Positions 597 to 17,071 of a DNA stretch of 32,496 bases are shown one piece after another (the stretch's first letter is position 1; each line of letters starts with the position of its first letter). A program made the position numbers and the translations under genes. Source of the stretch: a candidate division WWE3 bacterium GW2011_GWC2_44_9 (lineage in GTDB: Bacteria; Patescibacteriota; WWE3; UBA101185; UBA10185); assembly GCA_000994815.1 (NCBI GenBank), contig LCJU01000005.1:1-32496 (forward strand), given 5' to 3'. Under the pieces are notes generated by a model, which searched no databases, was not told the DNA's origin, and saw only the letters and a program-made list of their open reading frames with translations.

Positions 597-3500
597 ATGC
601 CGGGATCCGGAGCTAAAACATTACGGGTAAAACTAGTTAACACAGCATCTAGTGGTACCTGTTACTGGCATCAGGTTGAGGCGCTTTCTAACATATACTC
701 GAATCCTTCTCTCGAAAATTGGCAAGGGACGTCACCAGATATACCATCCTCTTTTAGTAACATGGGCCTCGATGCTGGAGATACAGCGCAATCTACAAGT
801 GTTGTTCATAGCGGAGCAAAAGCATTTCAGGCTAACACAACAGCAACAACTGGAGAGAGGCTATATAACATAACAGGATTTTTAACAGGTAAGTTTTACT
901 CTATAGGGCACTTTAGCTACGGTGATGGTGCTAAAGGTTTTTACTTTACCAACGATTCTATCAACGCGCATCTTCAATATAGCACAAGTGCGCTCACCTT
1001 TAAGAGTAACGTTTTAAGCCAGTGGAAACCAACGCTTACTGTTTGGAGATCTGCAAGAGATTCTGGACAAGCATGGAAATATTTTGATTGGGAAAGTGGG
1101 GCAACAGGGCTGCGGTACCTTGACGACTTATATTGGTTTCAACTATCCGACGTCTCCCTCCTTACCGTCACCCCTGCCACCCTAGCAAACAGCACAGAAA
1201 GCACAGGTATTAGGGTAGATGGACGTGATACCTATACTCAAACAGTATCAGGGTTAACCTCTACAGCAGGAAGCTTTGGTGTTAACTACACACCCCGTCA
1301 CAGTGCCGGAGATGTGGCTAAGTTTGGAGTATCCACTCCATATATATTTGATATTTACGGAAACTCTACTAACTACATACGCGCATATTGGAGTGCAGCT
1401 AATGTTATTACTTTAGCTTTTAACGATGGGGGTACAGAAAGATATGCCAACTGGGATGCAACAGGAGTAATTGTTGCCGGCACAACATACTCTACTAAAG
1501 TAACCTATTCTCCAACCTCTGCCATACTCAGTGTAGATGGAGTAGATAAGGCAACTGCGGGAGCGGGAACACCTCCTAGCTTTGCAACTGTCCCCACAAC
1601 CCTGTACATGGGATCTAAGAATGATGGAACTTTACAAGGGGATGCTACTTTTGCCTCATACAACTTTGGCCCAACAGGGTCCGTTTCTATTAACTCTGCC
1701 GCGGCTTCAGTTGGAAGTTCTTCTGTTACCCTTACCCTTTCCGGTTCCGATGATAACTCCAGCGAGGCTAATTTGGACATTAAAGTTTCCAATCTTTCTG
1801 ATTTATCCGATGCCTCGTGGGAAGACTTTTCTGCATCCAAAGCTTGGACTATCAATACTTCCGGAGGAGATGGGGTTAAAACCGTATACTATTTATTAAA
1901 AGATGAAAGCTCTCTGGAGTCGGCTACTTTTTCCGATACCATAATTTATGACACCACTAACCCCACTGCTCCGGGAACTCCAAGCACCACATCACCCACC
2001 AGCGATAAAACACCCACCTGGACCTGGGATGCTTCAACGGACGCTGGATCCGGTTTGCATGCCACAACCCCGTATACGGTAGAGTGGGCAAATGATAGCT
2101 CCTTTACCAATGAAACAGGTACCACAACATCTTCTTCTACCTCGTATACTCATGTCTCTAATCTCCATGATGGAACCTGGTACTTTAGGGTAAAGGCTAT
2201 GGATGCGCTGTCTCATGAAAGCAGCTACTCATCTAGCGGCTCGGTAGTTATTGAAACCGGATCGCCCTCTAATACGTCGATTAGTATTAATGATGGAGAC
2301 GCCTACTCCATAAGTCAAGCTGTAACTCTCACTCTAAATGCTGAGGACACCAATACCCCCATTGAGATACGCGTTGCCAACTCCCGCTCCGGTGTAACCG
2401 GCTCCTCGTGGGAAACTTATGACTCGTCAACCAGCCACTCTTTAACAGCTACTGACGGCTCAAAAACCGTATATGCCCAATTTAGAGATTCTTTAGAGAA
2501 TGAAACAGACATAATATCCGATTCTATTACCCTGGATACTACCGATCCTACCGGAGTAGGTATCCCATCTACCTCCTCGGCTAGCAACGATAATACTCCT
2601 ACTTGGGTATGGACAGGCGGATCCGATGCTACTAGTGGTCTTTCTACAACGGCTAGCTATACTCTGGAGTGGTCTCAAAGTGCAGCTTTTAGCTCTACTA
2701 CCGGTAGCTCCACTGTAGGTACCAACTCATGTTCCGGGGGAAGTTGCTCCTTTACCCATACTACGGCTCTTGATGATGCCACCTGGTACTTTAGAGTTAA
2801 GGCAACTGACAATGCAGAAAATGAAACCGCATACTATACAAGTGACAGTTTTTTAATCTCCACCGACGGTGATCCACCAACCGGTTCGGTTTCTATTGAT
2901 GGGGGTAACTCATATACTCAAGATGGCTCGGTAGCCCTTACTATCTCCGCCACCGATAACGTTGACGCGGTTGGGTCTTTGCAAATGAAAGTGGGCAATA
3001 CAGCATCCCTTGATAGTGCCAGCTGGGAAACTTACTCAACATCCAAAACTCACACCTTGGATACCACCTCCGAAGGCACCAAAACAGTGTATATAAAATT
3101 TAAAGATTCCAAAGCCAATGAGTCACAGGTGTACTCCGATACCATTGTTTACGATGCCGCCGCGCCAACAGAGCCTGACTTGGCAGACCCCGATGATGGC
3201 TCATTTACCAACGATGCCACTCCTAAATTCAACTGGGATGCCTCAACCGACAGTGTATCCGGCGTGAGCAGCTACGATTTATACGTTAAAAAAAGCGGCG
3301 ACGACTACGCAAACAAAGGCGATACCGATTCCGACACTACCGAGTATACCCTTAAAGACTCGCAGGAACTCGAAAGCGAGGGCACCTACTACTGGTATGT
3401 CCAAGTGTCCGACAATGCCGGCAACACCAGAGACAGCTCCACGTACTCGTTTACACTGGATAAAACAAAACCAACCATTAGTTTACTGGAGAACTGGGGC

Positions 3501-11717: not shown

Positions 11718-13615
11718 AAATACCGCTAGAGTGGCTTAAAGATTACGTCGCCATTAAGAAAAGTCCAAAAGAAATAGGAACTGCGTTTACAGCTTTTGGG
11801 CTTATGGTTGATAAGCCATTTGACGGTAAAACTTTTGACCTCGAGCACCGCTTTGACCGCTCTGACTGGTTGTCGATTCTAGGCTGCGCAAGGGATTTGG
11901 CCGCGTACGAAAGACTTGAATTAAAATTACCAAAAATCTATACCGCCAAAGGCAAGGCGCCTACAGATGAATACAAAGTCGCAATAAAAGTGGAGTGTCC
12001 AGAAATTATCAGGCGGTTTAACACCAGGGTGTTTAGAAATGTTAAAGTTGGCAAGTCTCCTGAATGGCTAAAAACTAGACTTGAAGACTACGGCATTCCG
12101 TCGATTAACAACATTGTAGATATCACTAACTACGTAATGGTTGAACTCGGCCAACCGATGCACGCCCAAGATACCGATAAATTCAGAAAGATGGAAATTT
12201 GTATTCGTAGAGCTGGAGATGAGGAAAAGATTGTTACATTTTTAGGTGATGAGGTTAAACTGTACCCAGAGGCATTTGTGCTTGCACAAGATGGAGTAAC
12301 AACAGTTCTTGGGGGTATTGTAGGCGGTAGAGAAACCGGTGTGGATGAACAAACCAAAAATATAGTGTTGGACGCAGGCAACTACGATCAGGTGGTGATC
12401 AGGAAGGTTTCGCGCAAATTGAAAATCCTAAATGAGTCATCGCTTAGATACGACAAGTATCTGCATCCCGATCTAACCGAATACGCTATCCAACGGGCTG
12501 CTTATTTAATTTTGGAACTGGCCGGCGGAGACTATTACGAAAATGAGGATTGGTATCCAATACCGCAAAAGCTTACTAGTATAAGGCTTTCCACATCGCG
12601 TATTAAGGATTTGGGTGGGTTGGAGCTGGCCGAAAATGAAGTACTGGACATATTGGAACGACTTGGCTACAGGCTGGTGTCAAATGTCAATAAAGTGCTA
12701 ACTCTTGAAGTACCTTACTTTAGAACAGATGTGGAAGTTGCCGATGACATCGTATCGGACATCTTGCGCATCCATGGCTATGCAAAAATCCCAATAACCC
12801 AACTACTCGGAGCACCGCCAAAGGAAGAAACCCCGGCTATTTATACTTTTGAGGACAAGCTTAGGGACATTTTGGTAAAACTAAGAGGCCACGAGCACAT
12901 CACCGATCCGCTAGTTTCTTCTACCGAGAGTCCCGAGGGAGGTCAAATTATCTTAGAAAATTCGCTAAATAGCGAGAAAAATGCCCTTAGAACCTCCATT
13001 GCCCAAGGACTGGAACACGTGGCGAGTAATTACTATAAAAATCAGATGAACTCCGGTGTACTTTTTGAAATCGGACTTGTATATCATAAAGAATCAGAAG
13101 GCGGCGACTATGAATCCTACAAAGAAACCCGATGTTTAGAGTGCCTCACCTTTGACAAGGCTAAAACGCCAAAGAACTTAGGTGTGATAACCTCAACCCT
13201 TTTTTCAGGACTCCTTAAAGAGCTGGGCCTAACTAAGCCAGCTTTTAAAAACGCCAACGAGGTTTACGTTGAAAACACGCTTATTGCAACGCTTAGGTAC
13301 AACGGTTTTACAGGTTTTACTGCAAATTTGCTGCAAGTAACTGGAGGCAAAAGAGATGCTAGGGTACTTTTTGACCTACAAAGCGGCATTTCTCTGGATA
13401 CATCCCTCACTGTAAGTCAAACCGAAATGGCTGGCGCGATATGCTCGGAGATTGCTGCTTCAAGCGATAAGATTAGTGAAAGTTTTGTGGTTGAAGAATA
13501 CACGGGGGAGAAGGTGGAGAAAGGTAAAAGAACGATTCTTATTAGGACCTATTTTACTAAAGGTGTGACGCAGAAAGAGGCAACCAAAATCCTAAATAAA
13601 TGGGGACGGTCCTGA
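11714..13615 (+). CDS. pheT: Phenylalanine--tRNA ligase beta subunit (short form lacking B2 OB domain)
   Basis: MKIPLEWLKDYV, RSDWLSILG.ARD, INNIVDITNYVMVELGQPMHA and VPYFRTDV motifs. The last codons (GRS*) lie inside an inverted repeat. Confidence 0.95.
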   Translation: MKIPLEWLKDYVAIKKSPKEIGTAFTAFGLMVDKPFDGKTFDLEHRFDRSDWLSILGCARDLAAYERLELKLPKIYTAKGKAPTDEYKVAIKVECPEIIRRFNTRVFRNVKVGKSPEWLKTRLEDYGIPSINNIVDITNYVMVELGQPMHAQDTDKFRKMEICIRRAGDEEKIVTFLGDEVKLYPEAFVLAQDGVTTVLGGIVGGRETGVDEQTKNIVLDAGNYDQVVIRKVSRKLKILNESSLRYDKYLHPDLTEYAIQRAAYLILELAGGDYYENEDWYPIPQKLTSIRLSTSRIKDLGGLELAENEVLDILERLGYRLVSNVNKVLTLEVPYFRTDVEVADDIVSDILRIHGYAKIPITQLLGAPPKEETPAIYTFEDKLRDILVKLRGHEHITDPLVSSTESPEGGQIILENSLNSEKNALRTSIAQGLEHVASNYYKNQMNSGVLFEIGLVYHKESEGGDYESYKETRCLECLTFDKAKTPKNLGVITSTLFSGLLKELGLTKPAFKNANEVYVENTLIATLRYNGFTGFTANLLQVTGGKRDARVLFDLQSGISLDTSLTVSQTEMAGAICSEIAASSDKISESFVVEEYTGEKVEKGKRTILIRTYFTKGVTQKEATKILNKWGRS

Positions 13616-13622
13616 AAGATGT
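13603..13622 (+). repeat. Left inverted repeat GGGACGGTCCTGAAAGATGT
   Basis: 17/20 identical to the reverse complement of 14356-14375, with the first 13 bp perfect. Palindromic core GGAC-G-GTCC. Contains the pheT stop. Confidence 0.9.
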
Positions 13623-13624
13623 TG

Positions 13625-14266
13625 TCATCTCAACCCTAACATACACAACCTCCTGTTGATGTTAGCGACGAACTGTCTAGAGCCCATGTAGTTATTGCAG
13701 ATAACCTCCTTGAATGGATCATCAGGCGTTCTAATTCCGCTGACGACAAATCTATTATATTCCGCAGGAGAAGTGAAATACCCAGCAATGCTTTGTAAAT
13801 CAATGAGTCCATCACCCAACGACCGATCGATATAACACTTAAACGAACTCCATTTATAGTCATCAGGAAAGGAAACTATACCAGCGCTAACAGGGTTTAG
13901 GTGAATATATCTGCTCAACCTCAATAAATAACTGTCTTTGTCAACAAATATACTCTGATACCTATTTCTAAATATGGGGCCGTTGATACTGTACTTTGCG
14001 TTGTAATAGCCAGCGTAATAAGTGTTAAGTCTGTGCATAATTTTCGACAACTTGCATCCATCACCTGTTTCTAAACACAGATGGACATGGGTGCTCATTA
14101 AACAATAACATAAGACTTTAAAATCGCTTTCCTGCTTAACGCGCTGCAGTCTCGCTAAATAAATTCTGAAGTCCGAATTATCTCTAAACAGGTCAACTAA
14201 ACTCACTGATCTACTAATAATGTGGTAACAAGTATGCGGAATATCCACCCTCGGCATTCTAGGCAT
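13625..14266 (-). CDS. REP-associated tyrosine transposase-like protein (Y1_Tnp, HUH endonuclease)
   Basis: MPR.PR...P...YHIISR, YCLMSTHVHL (HUH), YYN.KY...G.IF..RY.S, RYIHLNPV (catalytic Tyr) and YKWSS motifs. Confidence 0.92.
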   Translation of the reverse strand: MPRMPRVDIPHTCYHIISRSVSLVDLFRDNSDFRIYLARLQRVKQESDFKVLCYCLMSTHVHLCLETGDGCKLSKIMHRLNTYYAGYYNAKYSINGPIFRNRYQSIFVDKDSYLLRLSRYIHLNPVSAGIVSFPDDYKWSSFKCYIDRSLGDGLIDLQSIAGYFTSPAEYNRFVVSGIRTPDDPFKEVICNNYMGSRQFVANINRRLCMLGLR

Positions 14267-14355
14267 TACATAATATCTATTAGCATAACTAACATGAATA
14301 AGTCAATGGGACTTGATGCAAAAAGTTAGTTGTATGACTTAAAGCCGGCATAGAG

Positions 14356-14375
14356 ACACGTCTCAGGACCGTCCC
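14356..14375 (-). repeat. Right inverted repeat GGGACGGTCCTGAGACGTGT (minus strand)
   Basis: Partner of 13603-13622. Contains the PBP stop codon. Confidence 0.9.
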
Positions 14376-17071
14376 TCTACTCTACGGCCGTTTTTATCTT
14401 TGGCCTTTACCTTAAACTCCTTTTCGCCTGCATCCTCCGGGCTAAAAACAAAATTGTAACCGTACGGGAAAGATTTATCTGTTGTTACTCGCTTATCACC
14501 TAAATAAATTTCCACTTGCTCAATATCGTCTTCAGACCAAGCATCCACTTTAAGTCTAAATTCCAAGGGAACCTTTTGCCCATCATCAAAGCCCACAATA
14601 TCCGTCCAAATCTTGCCGCCGCTAACGTTACCCTCGCTATCAAACGCCAATTTTGACGTGCCGGAAGGCGGAAAATAGGTATCGTCTCCGCCATACTTTT
14701 CGGACACCCACTTGTCTACTTCATCCTGCCACTCTGGCAGCTCTGCCTGTATCTTGATGTAGTTTTTCTCTTTAGTTTTGTCAGCACTCTTGCAGGCTTC
14801 ATTGGCAATCTTACCATCTACCTTACACACTTCCAGCTTTTGATACCAGTCGGAAACAGCAGTTGGTTCGGTACCGTTAACAAACCACTCCACCCGCTTG
14901 TCGTAATCGCGGTAGGGGAGCATACCTGTGAGTTTGTCCACCTCCAGCTTTTTTACGCCGTCGGGTGCGTCAAACTTTTCCACGGGTCTTTTGGCATCCT
15001 TGGCATAGTAATCCTTAATATACTGGGTCATAAACCTGTTCCATATGGGCGTGGCGCCGGTGATACCGGAAGCCAAAATAGGGTTCATCTTATCGTTATT
15101 GTTATTACCAACCCACACGGCCGAAACCACAAACGGGGTAAAACCAATAGCGTAGTTATCTCTTTTGTCGTCAGTAGTACCGGTTTTTGCCGCCACTTCA
15201 TGGCCGGGAATATGCAGGAGACTGTTAAAGCCAAAGGCTTCACTTCTGGCCCCATCGTCGGATAAGATATCGGAAATTAAAAAGGCTACTTGTTGACTTA
15301 GCGCCCGCGTGCCGCCCGAATCGCTCCACTTGTACATGGTAGAACCTTTAGCATCTTTGACTTCAAGTAATGCTTCCGGCTCGCGATATATACCGTTGGC
15401 CGCAAAAACACTGAAAGCTCCGGCCATCTCCAGCAGCTTGGTTTCGCCGCCGCCTAAAGTTAAAGCTAAGCCGTAACCTTCCGGCCGGTCAAACGTGCTG
15501 ATACCCATTTTCTTGGCTTGGTCAATCATAGTGCCGATACCAGCCATTTTTAGAGCTTTAACCGCCGGAATATTTAGTGAATTACCAAGCGATTTACGTA
15601 GCGACATCACGCCACTGAACCCGCCGCTGTAGTTTTCTGGTTTATACACTTTTTGGCCCGCCATATTCTCAAAAGTTGTTGGTACGTCCAAAAACGGAAA
15701 GGCCGAGATGTAGCCGCGGGAAAGTAGAGCAGCGTACGTTATAGGCTTAATGGTAGAACCGGGCTGCCTTTCTGCCAAAGTAACGTTTAAGTTAGGATCA
15801 AACACACATGAGCCCGGCCCGGTGGCGCCGGAAACACAGCCTTCAGGCTCCGGTTCGGCAAAATAGTCCTTAGAGCCAACCATCGCCAATATTTGCCCAG
15901 TCTTTGGATCCAGCACCACCATAGCACCGTTTCCAACAGCCAAACCTTGTTTGGCTGCCTTTGCCACCTCTTCTCCAACCATATTTTCCGCCAGCTGTTG
16001 AGTGGCCAAATCCAAAGTGGTGGTTACAACTAAACCGCCGCCCTCAACAAAGTCCTCACCGTACTTCTCCGCCAAAAGCTCCTTAACATAAAAAACAAAA
16101 TGCGGCGCTAGAAACGAGACGTTGGCGCGTTCAAACTTAAGCTCTGCTTTTTTTGCAGCCTCGTAGTCCTCGTCCGACAAGTAATGCCGCTTGCCATCCT
16201 GCTCGAACCAGCCGCGAACGTTCATTAAGTACAATACATAATCTTTTCTTTCTAAGCCCTTAGCCGGATCCGAGCTATAGTACGAATATACCGACGGGCT
16301 TTGCGGCAATCCAGCCAAATAGGCGGACTCGGCAATAGTTAAGTCCTTGGGGTCCTTATTAAAATAGGCTTTTGCCGCTGTTAACACACCATAGTTCTGG
16401 CCGCCATACGGCGTTTCGTTTAAGTACATTTGGGCGATTTCGTCTTTGGTATACTTGCTTTCAAGCTGAAGCGCCAGCACAAACTCTTTAAGCTTACGGG
16501 TTACGGTTCGTTCTTGGCTAAGCAACGTATTTTTGATCACTTGTTGGGTTAAGGTGGATCCGCCCTGCAAATCGCCGCCAAAAAAGGTATTTTTCATCGC
16601 TCGGAGCATACCCCTTAACGAAAATCCGCTGTGCATGTAAAAATCGGAGTCTTCTGTAGCTAGGGTTGCGTGGACTAAATAGGGAGAAATAGTTTTAATC
16701 TCCACTAACTCACGATTTTTTTCGCCAAAGACCTCGTAAATAGATTGGCCGTTTCGATCCAAAATTTTAGTCGACAATTCCTCACTGCGATTAAGCAATT
16801 TATCCGGTGACGGCAACTGATATGAATACACCGCGAAAACCACCATGGAAAGTACAAAAAAACCCACAATACAGGCCAATAAAGCCGACGCCAAATATGT
16901 TAAAACTACCAACTTCCTACTGGCGTATTTCTTTTTGGAGATATTCACCACCCGAGCATACTCAACACGCGGAGTTCTCGCTAGGACGCCGTTTGCCAAG
17001 GGCAGATTAGTAGCTACGGACTTTGCTGACATCGCAAGTCGTCTGCGCAGTCGTTTTAAGCTATAAGCCAT
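14363..17071 (-). CDS. Class A penicillin-binding protein (transglycosylase/transpeptidase) with C-terminal Ig-like domain
   Basis: N-terminal TM helix. Transglycosylase motifs TED..FY.H.G, GGSTLTQQ, RKLKE and YLNE. Transpeptidase motifs PGSTIKP, SLN and KTGT. Big-like tail (VEIYLGD....PY...F). Confidence 0.96.
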   Translation of the reverse strand: MAYSLKRLRRRLAMSAKSVATNLPLANGVLARTPRVEYARVVNISKKKYASRKLVVLTYLASALLACIVGFFVLSMVVFAVYSYQLPSPDKLLNRSEELSTKILDRNGQSIYEVFGEKNRELVEIKTISPYLVHATLATEDSDFYMHSGFSLRGMLRAMKNTFFGGDLQGGSTLTQQVIKNTLLSQERTVTRKLKEFVLALQLESKYTKDEIAQMYLNETPYGGQNYGVLTAAKAYFNKDPKDLTIAESAYLAGLPQSPSVYSYYSSDPAKGLERKDYVLYLMNVRGWFEQDGKRHYLSDEDYEAAKKAELKFERANVSFLAPHFVFYVKELLAEKYGEDFVEGGGLVVTTTLDLATQQLAENMVGEEVAKAAKQGLAVGNGAMVVLDPKTGQILAMVGSKDYFAEPEPEGCVSGATGPGSCVFDPNLNVTLAERQPGSTIKPITYAALLSRGYISAFPFLDVPTTFENMAGQKVYKPENYSGGFSGVMSLRKSLGNSLNIPAVKALKMAGIGTMIDQAKKMGISTFDRPEGYGLALTLGGGETKLLEMAGAFSVFAANGIYREPEALLEVKDAKGSTMYKWSDSGGTRALSQQVAFLISDILSDDGARSEAFGFNSLLHIPGHEVAAKTGTTDDKRDNYAIGFTPFVVSAVWVGNNNNDKMNPILASGITGATPIWNRFMTQYIKDYYAKDAKRPVEKFDAPDGVKKLEVDKLTGMLPYRDYDKRVEWFVNGTEPTAVSDWYQKLEVCKVDGKIANEACKSADKTKEKNYIKIQAELPEWQDEVDKWVSEKYGGDDTYFPPSGTSKLAFDSEGNVSGGKIWTDIVGFDDGQKVPLEFRLKVDAWSEDDIEQVEIYLGDKRVTTDKSFPYGYNFVFSPEDAGEKEFKVKAKDKNGRRVEGRS

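Follow-up and report, generated by a model that had tools for sequence, protein, structure and literature searches.

A probable TIRtron with a short transposase gene at the convergent pheT/PBP junction of a candidate division WWE3 genome

A 32,496 nt stretch of DNA from candidate division WWE3 bacterium GW2011_GWC2_44_9 (contig LCJU01000005.1, positions 1 to 32,496 of the forward strand; hereafter the window) carries a cassette made up of a Y1 HUH transposase gene and a flanking pair of inverted repeats, situated between the phenylalanine-tRNA ligase gene pheT and a gene for a class A penicillin-binding protein (PBP). The cassette is very probably a TIRtron, that is, a single-copy gene for a transposase of the TIRYT kind bracketed by its cognate terminal inverted repeats (TIRs). 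By its sequence, the element is a short member of that kind without a helix-turn-helix (HTH) domain, resident in a WWE3 genome, and the kind itself has already been described. A first-pass annotation of the same DNA had proposed an undescribed element, having weighed the cassette against two established patterns alone: the insertion sequences (IS) of the IS200/IS605 family, and the transposases associated with GTAG-type repetitive extragenic palindromic (REP) sequences, known as REP-associated tyrosine transposases (RAYTs). The TIRtron, a third established pattern, was omitted from that comparison, and the claim of novelty falls with the papers that named it in 2013 (PMC3733652) and equated it with a transposase subclass in 2018 (PMC6006769), as far as the portions of those papers used here go.

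In the portions of their paper used here, Di Nocera, De Gregorio and Rocco (2013; PMC3733652) gave the name TIRYT to RAYT-like genes 'flanked by TIRs' and called the resulting units TIRtrons; some TIRs lie at a similar distance from the gene and share the motif GGGGWSAS, and some form moderately abundant families with single, dimeric or grouped copies. In the corresponding portions of Quentin et al. (2018; PMC6006769), 20 of 26 TIRYTs belong to subclass 2.1 of TnpAY1, which is characterized by a Y[IV]HLNP or YIELNP motif, an 'SS' tail motif, HTH or Bac_DnaA_C tails and an absence of REP hairpins, occurs in 14.9% of the strains surveyed, and is equated with both TIRYT and RAYT group 1 of Bertels et al. 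From the sections of the latter paper used here (Bertels et al. 2017; PMC5581495), group 1 is the largest and most widely distributed RAYT group and the most IS-like of the true RAYT groups, with 6.3% duplicates and flanking 16-mers that are modestly abundant (12 occurrences). Within the literature found, the terms TIRYT and TIRtron appear in full text only in the 2013 paper and in the 2018 paper with its preprint.

The two arms of the window's inverted repeat (Table 1) are 20 nt long, lie 733 nt apart and are complementary at 17 of 20 positions (85%), with an exact shared core of 13 nt, GGGACGGTCCTGA; the repeat search confirmed the first-pass description of a Y1 transposase between such arms. 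Read inward, the 3′ arm is GGGACGGTCCTGAAAGATGT, and beyond it the likeness to other copies extends to a TTGTCA box (~13623-13628) and to an AAC box at 13647-13649, while the 5′ side has its AAC box at 14329-14331 on the minus strand. The AAC follows the A of GGGGAC by 41 nt in all seven aligned copies of the host genome (alignment A2) and, as judged by eye, in four copies of a related genome that is introduced below; the same bipartite end layout, repeat plus boxes, is also present in other TIRtrons. Within the window, GGACNGTCC occurs twice against 0.21 expected, a count reached by 2 of 100 shuffles. A chance repeat was rejected on the length of the inverted repeat, the window shuffles and the genome-wide motif counts.

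The repeat travels with the gene. A homologue search across 60 related genomes and the window's own identified the transposase in 24 of 61 genomes, and in 7 of the 36 other genomes of the same family. The best match among the related genomes, here called the sister element (genome G023), encodes a protein of 213 aa with 53% identity to the window transposase and is flanked by a perfect 14-nt inverted repeat, GGGACGGTTCTTGG. Its upstream repeat arm starts 99 nt ahead of the ATG and its downstream arm 8 nt past the stop codon; the window's distances are 109 and 9 nt. The sister element occupies an intergenic position between two other open reading frames (ORFs), at a different locus from the window's, and the pheT/PBP junction of its own genome is empty, with a 1-nt gap. 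Homologues unflanked by the motif had been named in the first-pass annotation as evidence that would count against its repeat; this homologue has the same motif on both sides, at another locus.

Further, the pairing of repeat and gene extends well beyond the close relatives. A single-protein scan of genome contigs returned 41 pattern matches, of which 0 were confirmed, and was replaced by an alignment-based scan, at one genome per species, that confirmed at least 590 relatives (590 of the first 600 pattern matches) and from which 80 loci were kept. Together with 20 loci from the related genomes, the window's own included, these formed the repeat survey, where 90 of 100 loci had at least 200 nt upstream and at least 100 nt downstream. 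At 64 of these 90 loci the two flanks share an exact inverted repeat that is 12 nt or longer, versus 10 of 270 mismatched-flank controls, the control being above zero because many loci share the same motif. Among the 64 repeat-bearing loci, GGGGWSAS is found in 29 and GGGWS in 49, with most repeats starting GGGG[AT][CG] and the commonest form being GGGGTCAGGTCT...TTGACA. For example, a homologue with 39% identity in a gammaproteobacterial metagenome-assembled genome (L138) has TAGGGGACGGTCCTTTGAT on both sides, and one in a Peribacillus genome (L137) has the repeat GGGGACTGTCCC. In 39 other GGGWS-led loci, among the matches listed, the outer end of the upstream repeat lies 44-145 nt from the ATG. 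Overall, equivalent repeats at equivalent gene distances accompany the homologues across many phyla. Because the homologous loci carry matching GGGG-led repeats, the window repeat can be read as a variant of a family-wide terminal repeat, with GGGGACGGTYCT as its probable version of GGGGWSAS.

The survey also showed a regularity at the 3′ end of the gene. In 21 of the 41 GGGWS-led TIRtrons listed (e.g. L068, L074, L075 and L080), the transposase ORF ends 3 nt short of the 3′ repeat's outer end, and in those 21 loci the transposase stop codon is the TGA within CCTGACCC, which is GGGTCAGG read on the opposite strand.

The protein carries the expected core. The transposase ORF matches Pfam Y1_Tnp (PF01797) with an E-value of 7.4e-11 and NCBIfam REP_Tyr_transpos (NF047646) with an E-value of 8.6e-19 (67.9 bits, under the model's cut-off of 80). 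In an alignment of the transposase with ten homologues (A1), the invariant residues include H60 and H62 of the HUH motif (T-H-V-H), Y120 and W139-S140-S141; the catalytic tyrosine is Y120, inside RYIHLNP, so that YIHLNP occupies residues 120-125. As a single sequence, the transposase has no match among solved structures in the PDB at E <= 0.01; the profile of the homologue alignment matches E. coli TnpAREP (PDB 4ER8) with an E-value of 2.3e-5, and its match to the IS200/IS605 transposases (IS608 and ISDra2 TnpA) is weak (E ~0.09). The gene is single-copy in the host genome by both tblastn and blastn. Many homologues are ~320 aa long with a C-terminal Bac_DnaA_C domain; the window protein and its two closest relatives, all short, have no second Pfam domain even at E <= 1, in a search where the homologue P0006 shows Bac_DnaA_C at 2e-12. 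The closest named homologues come from candidate division WWE3, with 53% identity for the transposase (P0003) and 80% for the PBP (P0105).

Copies of the repeat also occur away from the gene. The 13-mer has 6 exact sites and 1 site with one mismatch in the host genome, arms included, compared with 0 forward and 1 reverse for a reversed control. The copy on contig C35 is the most convincing solo end; over 40 nt (C35:5011-5050) it is 87.5% identical to the 3′ arm, and it is intergenic, as are the copies on C9 and C8. The C12 copy lies inside a 147-aa ORF without a Pfam match (L004, local 1131-1574), 24 codons ahead of the stop (...LLIGDGPEEYGY...); a repeat copy may have shaped this gene end too, or the ORF may be spurious. 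The C15 copy (L005) is inside an ORF (999-2111, minus strand), in frame on the GDGP motif of a GT4 glycosyltransferase (Pfam 1e-26). A second box, CACAACCTCC, follows 32 nt further on, and the 13-mer and the box together overlie the GDGP...HNL motifs. GDGP words number 7 in all six frames of the host genome, and the motif copies account for 5 of them. The C15 copy may be coincidental, or it may have arisen when the repeat captured gene sequence or by conversion.

In the sister element's genome, GGGACGGTYCT has 5 sites. There, an inverted pair of GGGGACGGTTCTT ~160 nt apart forms a ~170-nt doublet (L030, G023:C38, ~local 1501-1670) directly downstream of the 3′ end of a tRNA gene, with one solo copy besides; the doublet resembles a miniature inverted-repeat transposable element (MITE) or a REPIN-like non-autonomous derivative of the sister TIRtron. 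Few as its members are, the repeat family is real, and it fits what was described for several TIRtrons in the portions of the 2013 paper used here (PMC3733652).

Table 1. Coordinates of the cassette, its neighbours and the dispersed repeat copies. Positions without a contig label are those of the window; C numbers are contigs of the host genome.
Feature	Position	Strand	Remarks
pheT, phenylalanine-tRNA ligase beta subunit, 633 aa	11714-13615	+	Pfam B3_4, B5, tRNA_synthFbeta; TIGR00472 E 6e-110
3′-side terminal inverted repeat, outer end 13603	13603-13622	.	Inverted repeat I1
Transposase gene (probable TIRYT), 213 aa, Y1 HUH	13625-14266	-	Pfam PF01797; NCBIfam NF047646
Leader between 5′ repeat and start codon	14267-14355	-	Presumed promoter region
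5′-side terminal inverted repeat, outer end 14375	14356-14375	.	Inverted repeat I1
Class A PBP gene, 902 aa here	14363-17071	-	Pfam Transgly, Transpeptidase, Big_7; TIGR02074 E 4e-139
TAG, PBP stop of the longer 907-aa variant	14377-14379	-	Out of frame in the window
Solo core copy	C9:4671-4683
Solo core copy	C9:13140-13152		One mismatch
Solo core copy	C12:11169-11181
Solo core copy	C15:1384-1396
Solo core copy	C35:5013-5025
Further copy	C8:9113		Form GGGGACGGTCCTAG

In the ORF listing, pheT and the PBP gene are convergent, with the minus-strand transposase ORF between them. Reading the sequence and its ORFs bore out the first-pass statement that both genes end in GGA CGG TCC TGA in the same phase, pheT with the tail ...NKWGRS and the PBP gene with ...GRRVEGRS. 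The last three codons and the stop of pheT (13604-13615) lie within the repeat, as do those of the PBP gene in this assembly. The two genes are convergent in 23 of 27 family relatives examined, with a stop-to-stop distance of -27 to +38 nt in 16 of the 23; with the junction so close to zero length, any insertion there hits coding sequence. At the other seven junctions (L037, L038, L043, L044, L049, L050 and L059), 401-830 nt with unrelated ORFs separate the genes, and the junction has apparently taken up insertions repeatedly. These inserts were rejected as further TIRtrons, as they contain unrelated open frames (292 aa in L037, 225 aa in L038) and no TIRYT. Short PheT tails are also present in three of the seven insert-bearing genomes. 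Among the 86 family genomes searched there was no same-genus genome without the cassette; relatives that lack it do not share the GRS ends, a sharing that the first-pass annotation had listed as evidence against its proposal.

The PheT end is stable across the available sources: KWGRS is also found in the database protein P0224 (99% identical) and in the contig of another sequencing run, X6, which shows no difference there. In the closest genus, all four of four genomes end ...D[IVA][SR][IV]R[SEK], ~7 residues longer and with the final strand present; that strand is present in most of the 26 aligned family relatives, with L034, L038, L044 and L049 as short as the window's PheT or shorter.

The PBP end has a second layer. 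A final beta-strand (consensus ..IKLxV..), found in every one of the 23 family relatives that have the gene, is missing from the window's PBP. Four other runs (X6, X14, X16 and X17) were compared by placing their contigs on 12600-15400, with X14 and X17 uncovered over 14198-14385. The X6 contig (2733 nt, spanning 12600-14974) has 29 extra letters behind 14384, and the X16 contig starts at 14385 with a 14-letter overhang that is the end of X6's 29 letters; neither of the 2 other runs that are informative here thus has the 29-nt deletion (14384/14385). Once the 29 letters are restored, the PBP frame runs through ...GRTADDSIKLTIE to a TAG located 2 nt outside the repeat; in the window, the deletion puts this TAG out of frame. 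This long-form frame was derived by hand and agrees with the database protein P0104, which is 907 aa long, has the same ...GRTADDSIKLTIE end and is 100% identical to the window PBP over the aligned part. Since X6, X16 and P0104 hold the longer form, the window's VEGRS end is a 29-nt deletion variant, which may be genuine to the strain or an artefact of assembly. Without the 29 nt, the PBP's C-terminal immunoglobulin (Ig)-like domain has lost its last strand, and the shifted frame ends at the TGA of the repeat. The long-form PBP is still ~7 residues shorter than its closest homologues (70-80% identity), which end ...SIKLxIYGGxxxx. Judged against the relatives' sequences, ~7 codons are lost from each gene where the element sits. 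The shortened tails of the first-pass annotation therefore stand insofar as both proteins are shorter than in relatives, but the loss of the PBP strand is due to a deletion that both informative runs and P0104 lack, and the PheT of some relatives is as short.

Compared with the window over the same interval, the X6 contig differs by 7 substitutions, all in pheT (12858-13321), with none over the next ~1650 nt that hold the cassette and the PBP end. The pattern may mark a mosaic or recombination boundary, or it may be chance.

Against the known systems, the window element resembles TIRtrons in having a RAYT-related Y1 HUH gene between terminal inverted repeats instead of REP hairpins, a GGGG-led repeat whose spacing to the gene varies little, and low to moderate numbers of solo and dimeric copies of the repeat elsewhere in the genome. 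It is unlike them in its motif (GGGGACGG), its host (a member of the candidate phyla radiation (CPR), WWE3, with a genome of ~0.7 Mb), its short protein and the overlap of its repeats with the coding ends of both neighbours. With subclass 2.1 and RAYT group 1 it has in common the SS motif after the core, the low copy number, the patchy distribution and the absence of REP hairpins, and its YIHLNP fits the Y[IV]HLNP given for subclass 2.1 in the part of PMC6006769 used here (Table 1 of that paper).

Several observations weigh against the assignment. The window has THVH where subclass 2.1 has NHVH or NH[YF]H, and F99-R where it has W[EQ] or FQ. The C-terminal HTH domains of that subclass (Bac_DnaA_C, HTH_23 and HTH_28) are missing from the window protein at Pfam E <= 1, whereas all 20 subclass-2.1 TIRYTs carry an HTH or Bac_DnaA_C domain according to the portions of the 2018 paper used here, which report no REP-like repeats for the subclass (PMC6006769). 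The NCBIfam score lies below the model's cut-off. The fit to GGGGWSAS is incomplete, at 7 of 8 positions for GGGGACGG in the 3′ arm and 6 of 8 for AGGGACGG in the 5′ arm; the motif is not obligatory, since only 'some' TIRs share it in the part of the Di Nocera paper used here (PMC3733652). The C15 copy, counted among the dispersed sites, may match the motif by chance and be no true repeat copy. Moreover, the relatives' genes overlap by at most 27 nt where ~40 nt or more would be needed, and a simple insertion therefore cannot shorten both genes, so that a target deletion or a second event must be assumed for the two losses. Finally, the literature found shows activity for no TIRYT.

The IS200/IS605 family shares the Y1 HUH fold and presumably the single-strand chemistry. 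It is distinguished by having subterminal hairpins in place of terminal inverted repeats, by the presence of several identical copies and often by a tnpB gene. In the part of PMC6006769 used here, its motif is Y---Q versus Y---NP. An IS200/IS605 element was rejected on the window's terminal repeats, its Y---NP, its single copy and the absence of tnpB.

Among the remaining alternatives, a classical REPtron of RAYT subclass 2.2, 2.4 or 2.5, in which a RAYT is flanked by inverted REPs that spread as REPs or REPINs, is very unlikely. The best NCBIfam model for the protein is REP_Tyr_transpos, the gene is single-copy, the flanking motif is over-represented in the genome and a REPIN-like doublet accompanies the sister element, all of which would suit such a unit. 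The E. coli TnpAREP system with its REPs and bacterial interspersed mosaic elements (BIMEs) likewise has the HUH/Tyr core and a single-copy gene between inverted copies of a dispersed repeat. However, the repeat's single-stranded DNA folds no better than shuffles on 4 of 4 strands (both strands at both ends; z of -0.16 to -0.51), and the repeat begins GGGGACGG and contains no GT[AG]G tag, so that the GTAG-tagged hairpin of the E. coli system is lacking. The copies are very few, fewer than ten (7 sites within one mismatch in the host genome) instead of tens to hundreds, and the NCBIfam score is under its cut-off. In addition, YIHLNP together with GGGG-led repeats matches subclass 2.1 and TIRYT, not 2.2 or 2.5; the E. 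coli enzyme belongs to a different subclass. The missing hairpin and the missing GTAG tag largely refute a REPtron.

Still less probable is the reading favoured by the first-pass annotation, a distinct and undescribed element with repeats adapted to entering the 3′ ends of genes and supplying replacement stops. Here, both neighbours end in the repeat and are shorter than in relatives, and the repeat carries an inward-reading TGA; across the 64 repeat-bearing loci, an open frame of at least 80 aa stops in the 5′-side arm at 11 and in the 3′-side arm at 2, these being open frames and not verified genes. Both arms overlap open-frame ends at only 1 of the 64 loci, the window's own, while the sister element is intergenic and most other motif copies of the host genome lie away from gene ends. 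The PBP gene's use of the repeat's TGA, taken in the annotation for a feature of the element, comes from the secondary 29-nt deletion, absent from both informative runs and from P0104, and the family had been described in 2013. Neither the trimming of gene ends nor the donation of stops characterizes the family. Units of repeats inside reading frames that leave the gene undestroyed are known as intragenic REPs in the portions of PMC3733652 and PMC6006769 used here; the window repeat differs from those described there in replacing the extreme 3′ end and supplying the stop, as opposed to lying in frame within a loop.

Least credible of all is a cassette that a site-specific recombinase inverts or excises, with the repeats as its sites. 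The repeats are inverted, with the palindromic core GGAC-G-GTCC in this genome, but the palindrome is kept neither in the sister element (GGACGGTTC) nor in the family consensus (GGGGTCAGGTCT), the repeats accompany a Y1 HUH gene across phyla, and no serine or tyrosine recombinase gene adjoins the cassette. The palindromic core noted in the first-pass annotation is thus present, and is probably incidental, because the sister element does without it. The inversion suggested there left no sign: joints of excision, empty-site or inversion forms were absent from the contigs of X14, X16, X17 and X6 on 12600-15400, although assembled contigs drop rare variants. Runs with 0.57-0.63 of the words have holes in their cover and do not represent cassette-free genomes.

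If the cassette is a TIRtron, its history and chemistry can be sketched. The unit was once mobile, as it occupies different loci in two genomes; the sister element's other locus and the ~170-nt repeat doublet are the grounds for past mobility. TnpA of IS200/IS605 elements and TnpAREP act on single-stranded DNA. By analogy, the Y1 enzyme would recognize the repeats and cut one strand, probably on single-stranded DNA, with nicking and rejoining through a 5′-phosphotyrosine link, probably at the replication fork, and such strand cutting would move or copy the DNA that the repeats bound. The inverted arms could pair in single-stranded DNA, more easily in the 170-nt doublet than across 750 nt, and the conserved TTGWYA and +41 AAC boxes are possible binding or cleavage determinants. 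The element would have entered the near-zero-length convergent pheT/PBP junction and displaced the last ~7 codons of both genes, with new stops supplied by the repeat (the GRS end of pheT) or by bases just outside it (the terminal E of the long-form PBP). The PBP's last beta-strand would have been lost afterwards, through a 29-nt deletion in the assembly or the strain that also brought the repeat's TGA into frame as the stop. That the two gene ends mirror each other is read as a local accident of the landing site and not as a function of the element, because the junction is almost without a spacer and overlap on both sides occurs at 1 of 64 loci.

A bolder extension of the TIRtron reading is a long shot. 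It holds that GGGGACGG-type TIRtrons insert with a short target deletion, that their inward stops replace the last codons of packed, even essential, genes so that the host survives, and that in streamlined CPR genomes, where the spacers between genes are close to nil, they would then be locked between core genes, effectively un-losable. The short HTH-less enzyme and a bipartite end (GGGGACGGTYCT, TTGWYA and an AAC exactly 41 nt from the A of GGGGAC) would together be a minimal TIRYT system.

The host genome (G000) comprises 712,044 bases in 53 contigs with 44% G+C, and the stretch is present in groundwater and soil metagenome runs. PheT is short throughout the family, most of the listed relatives having ORFs of 616-664 aa; the window's PheT matches the bacterial model TIGR00472 from model position 156 on, and its N-terminal tRNA-binding domain is apparently missing. 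No known RNA family was found in 13300-14700 at E <= 1. A sigma-70 scan identified no minus-strand site upstream of 14266 that could serve as a promoter for the transposase gene, and its 2 plus-strand sites are not above the shuffle level.

TIRYTs are a known class and the largest RAYT-like group. To this class the locus adds a compact member that has no HTH domain and whose ends are clearly delimited, in the genome of a candidate phylum; it is also a natural case of an element clipping two essential genes. It opens no new category, and it provides a convenient set of substrates for a first TIRYT biochemistry.

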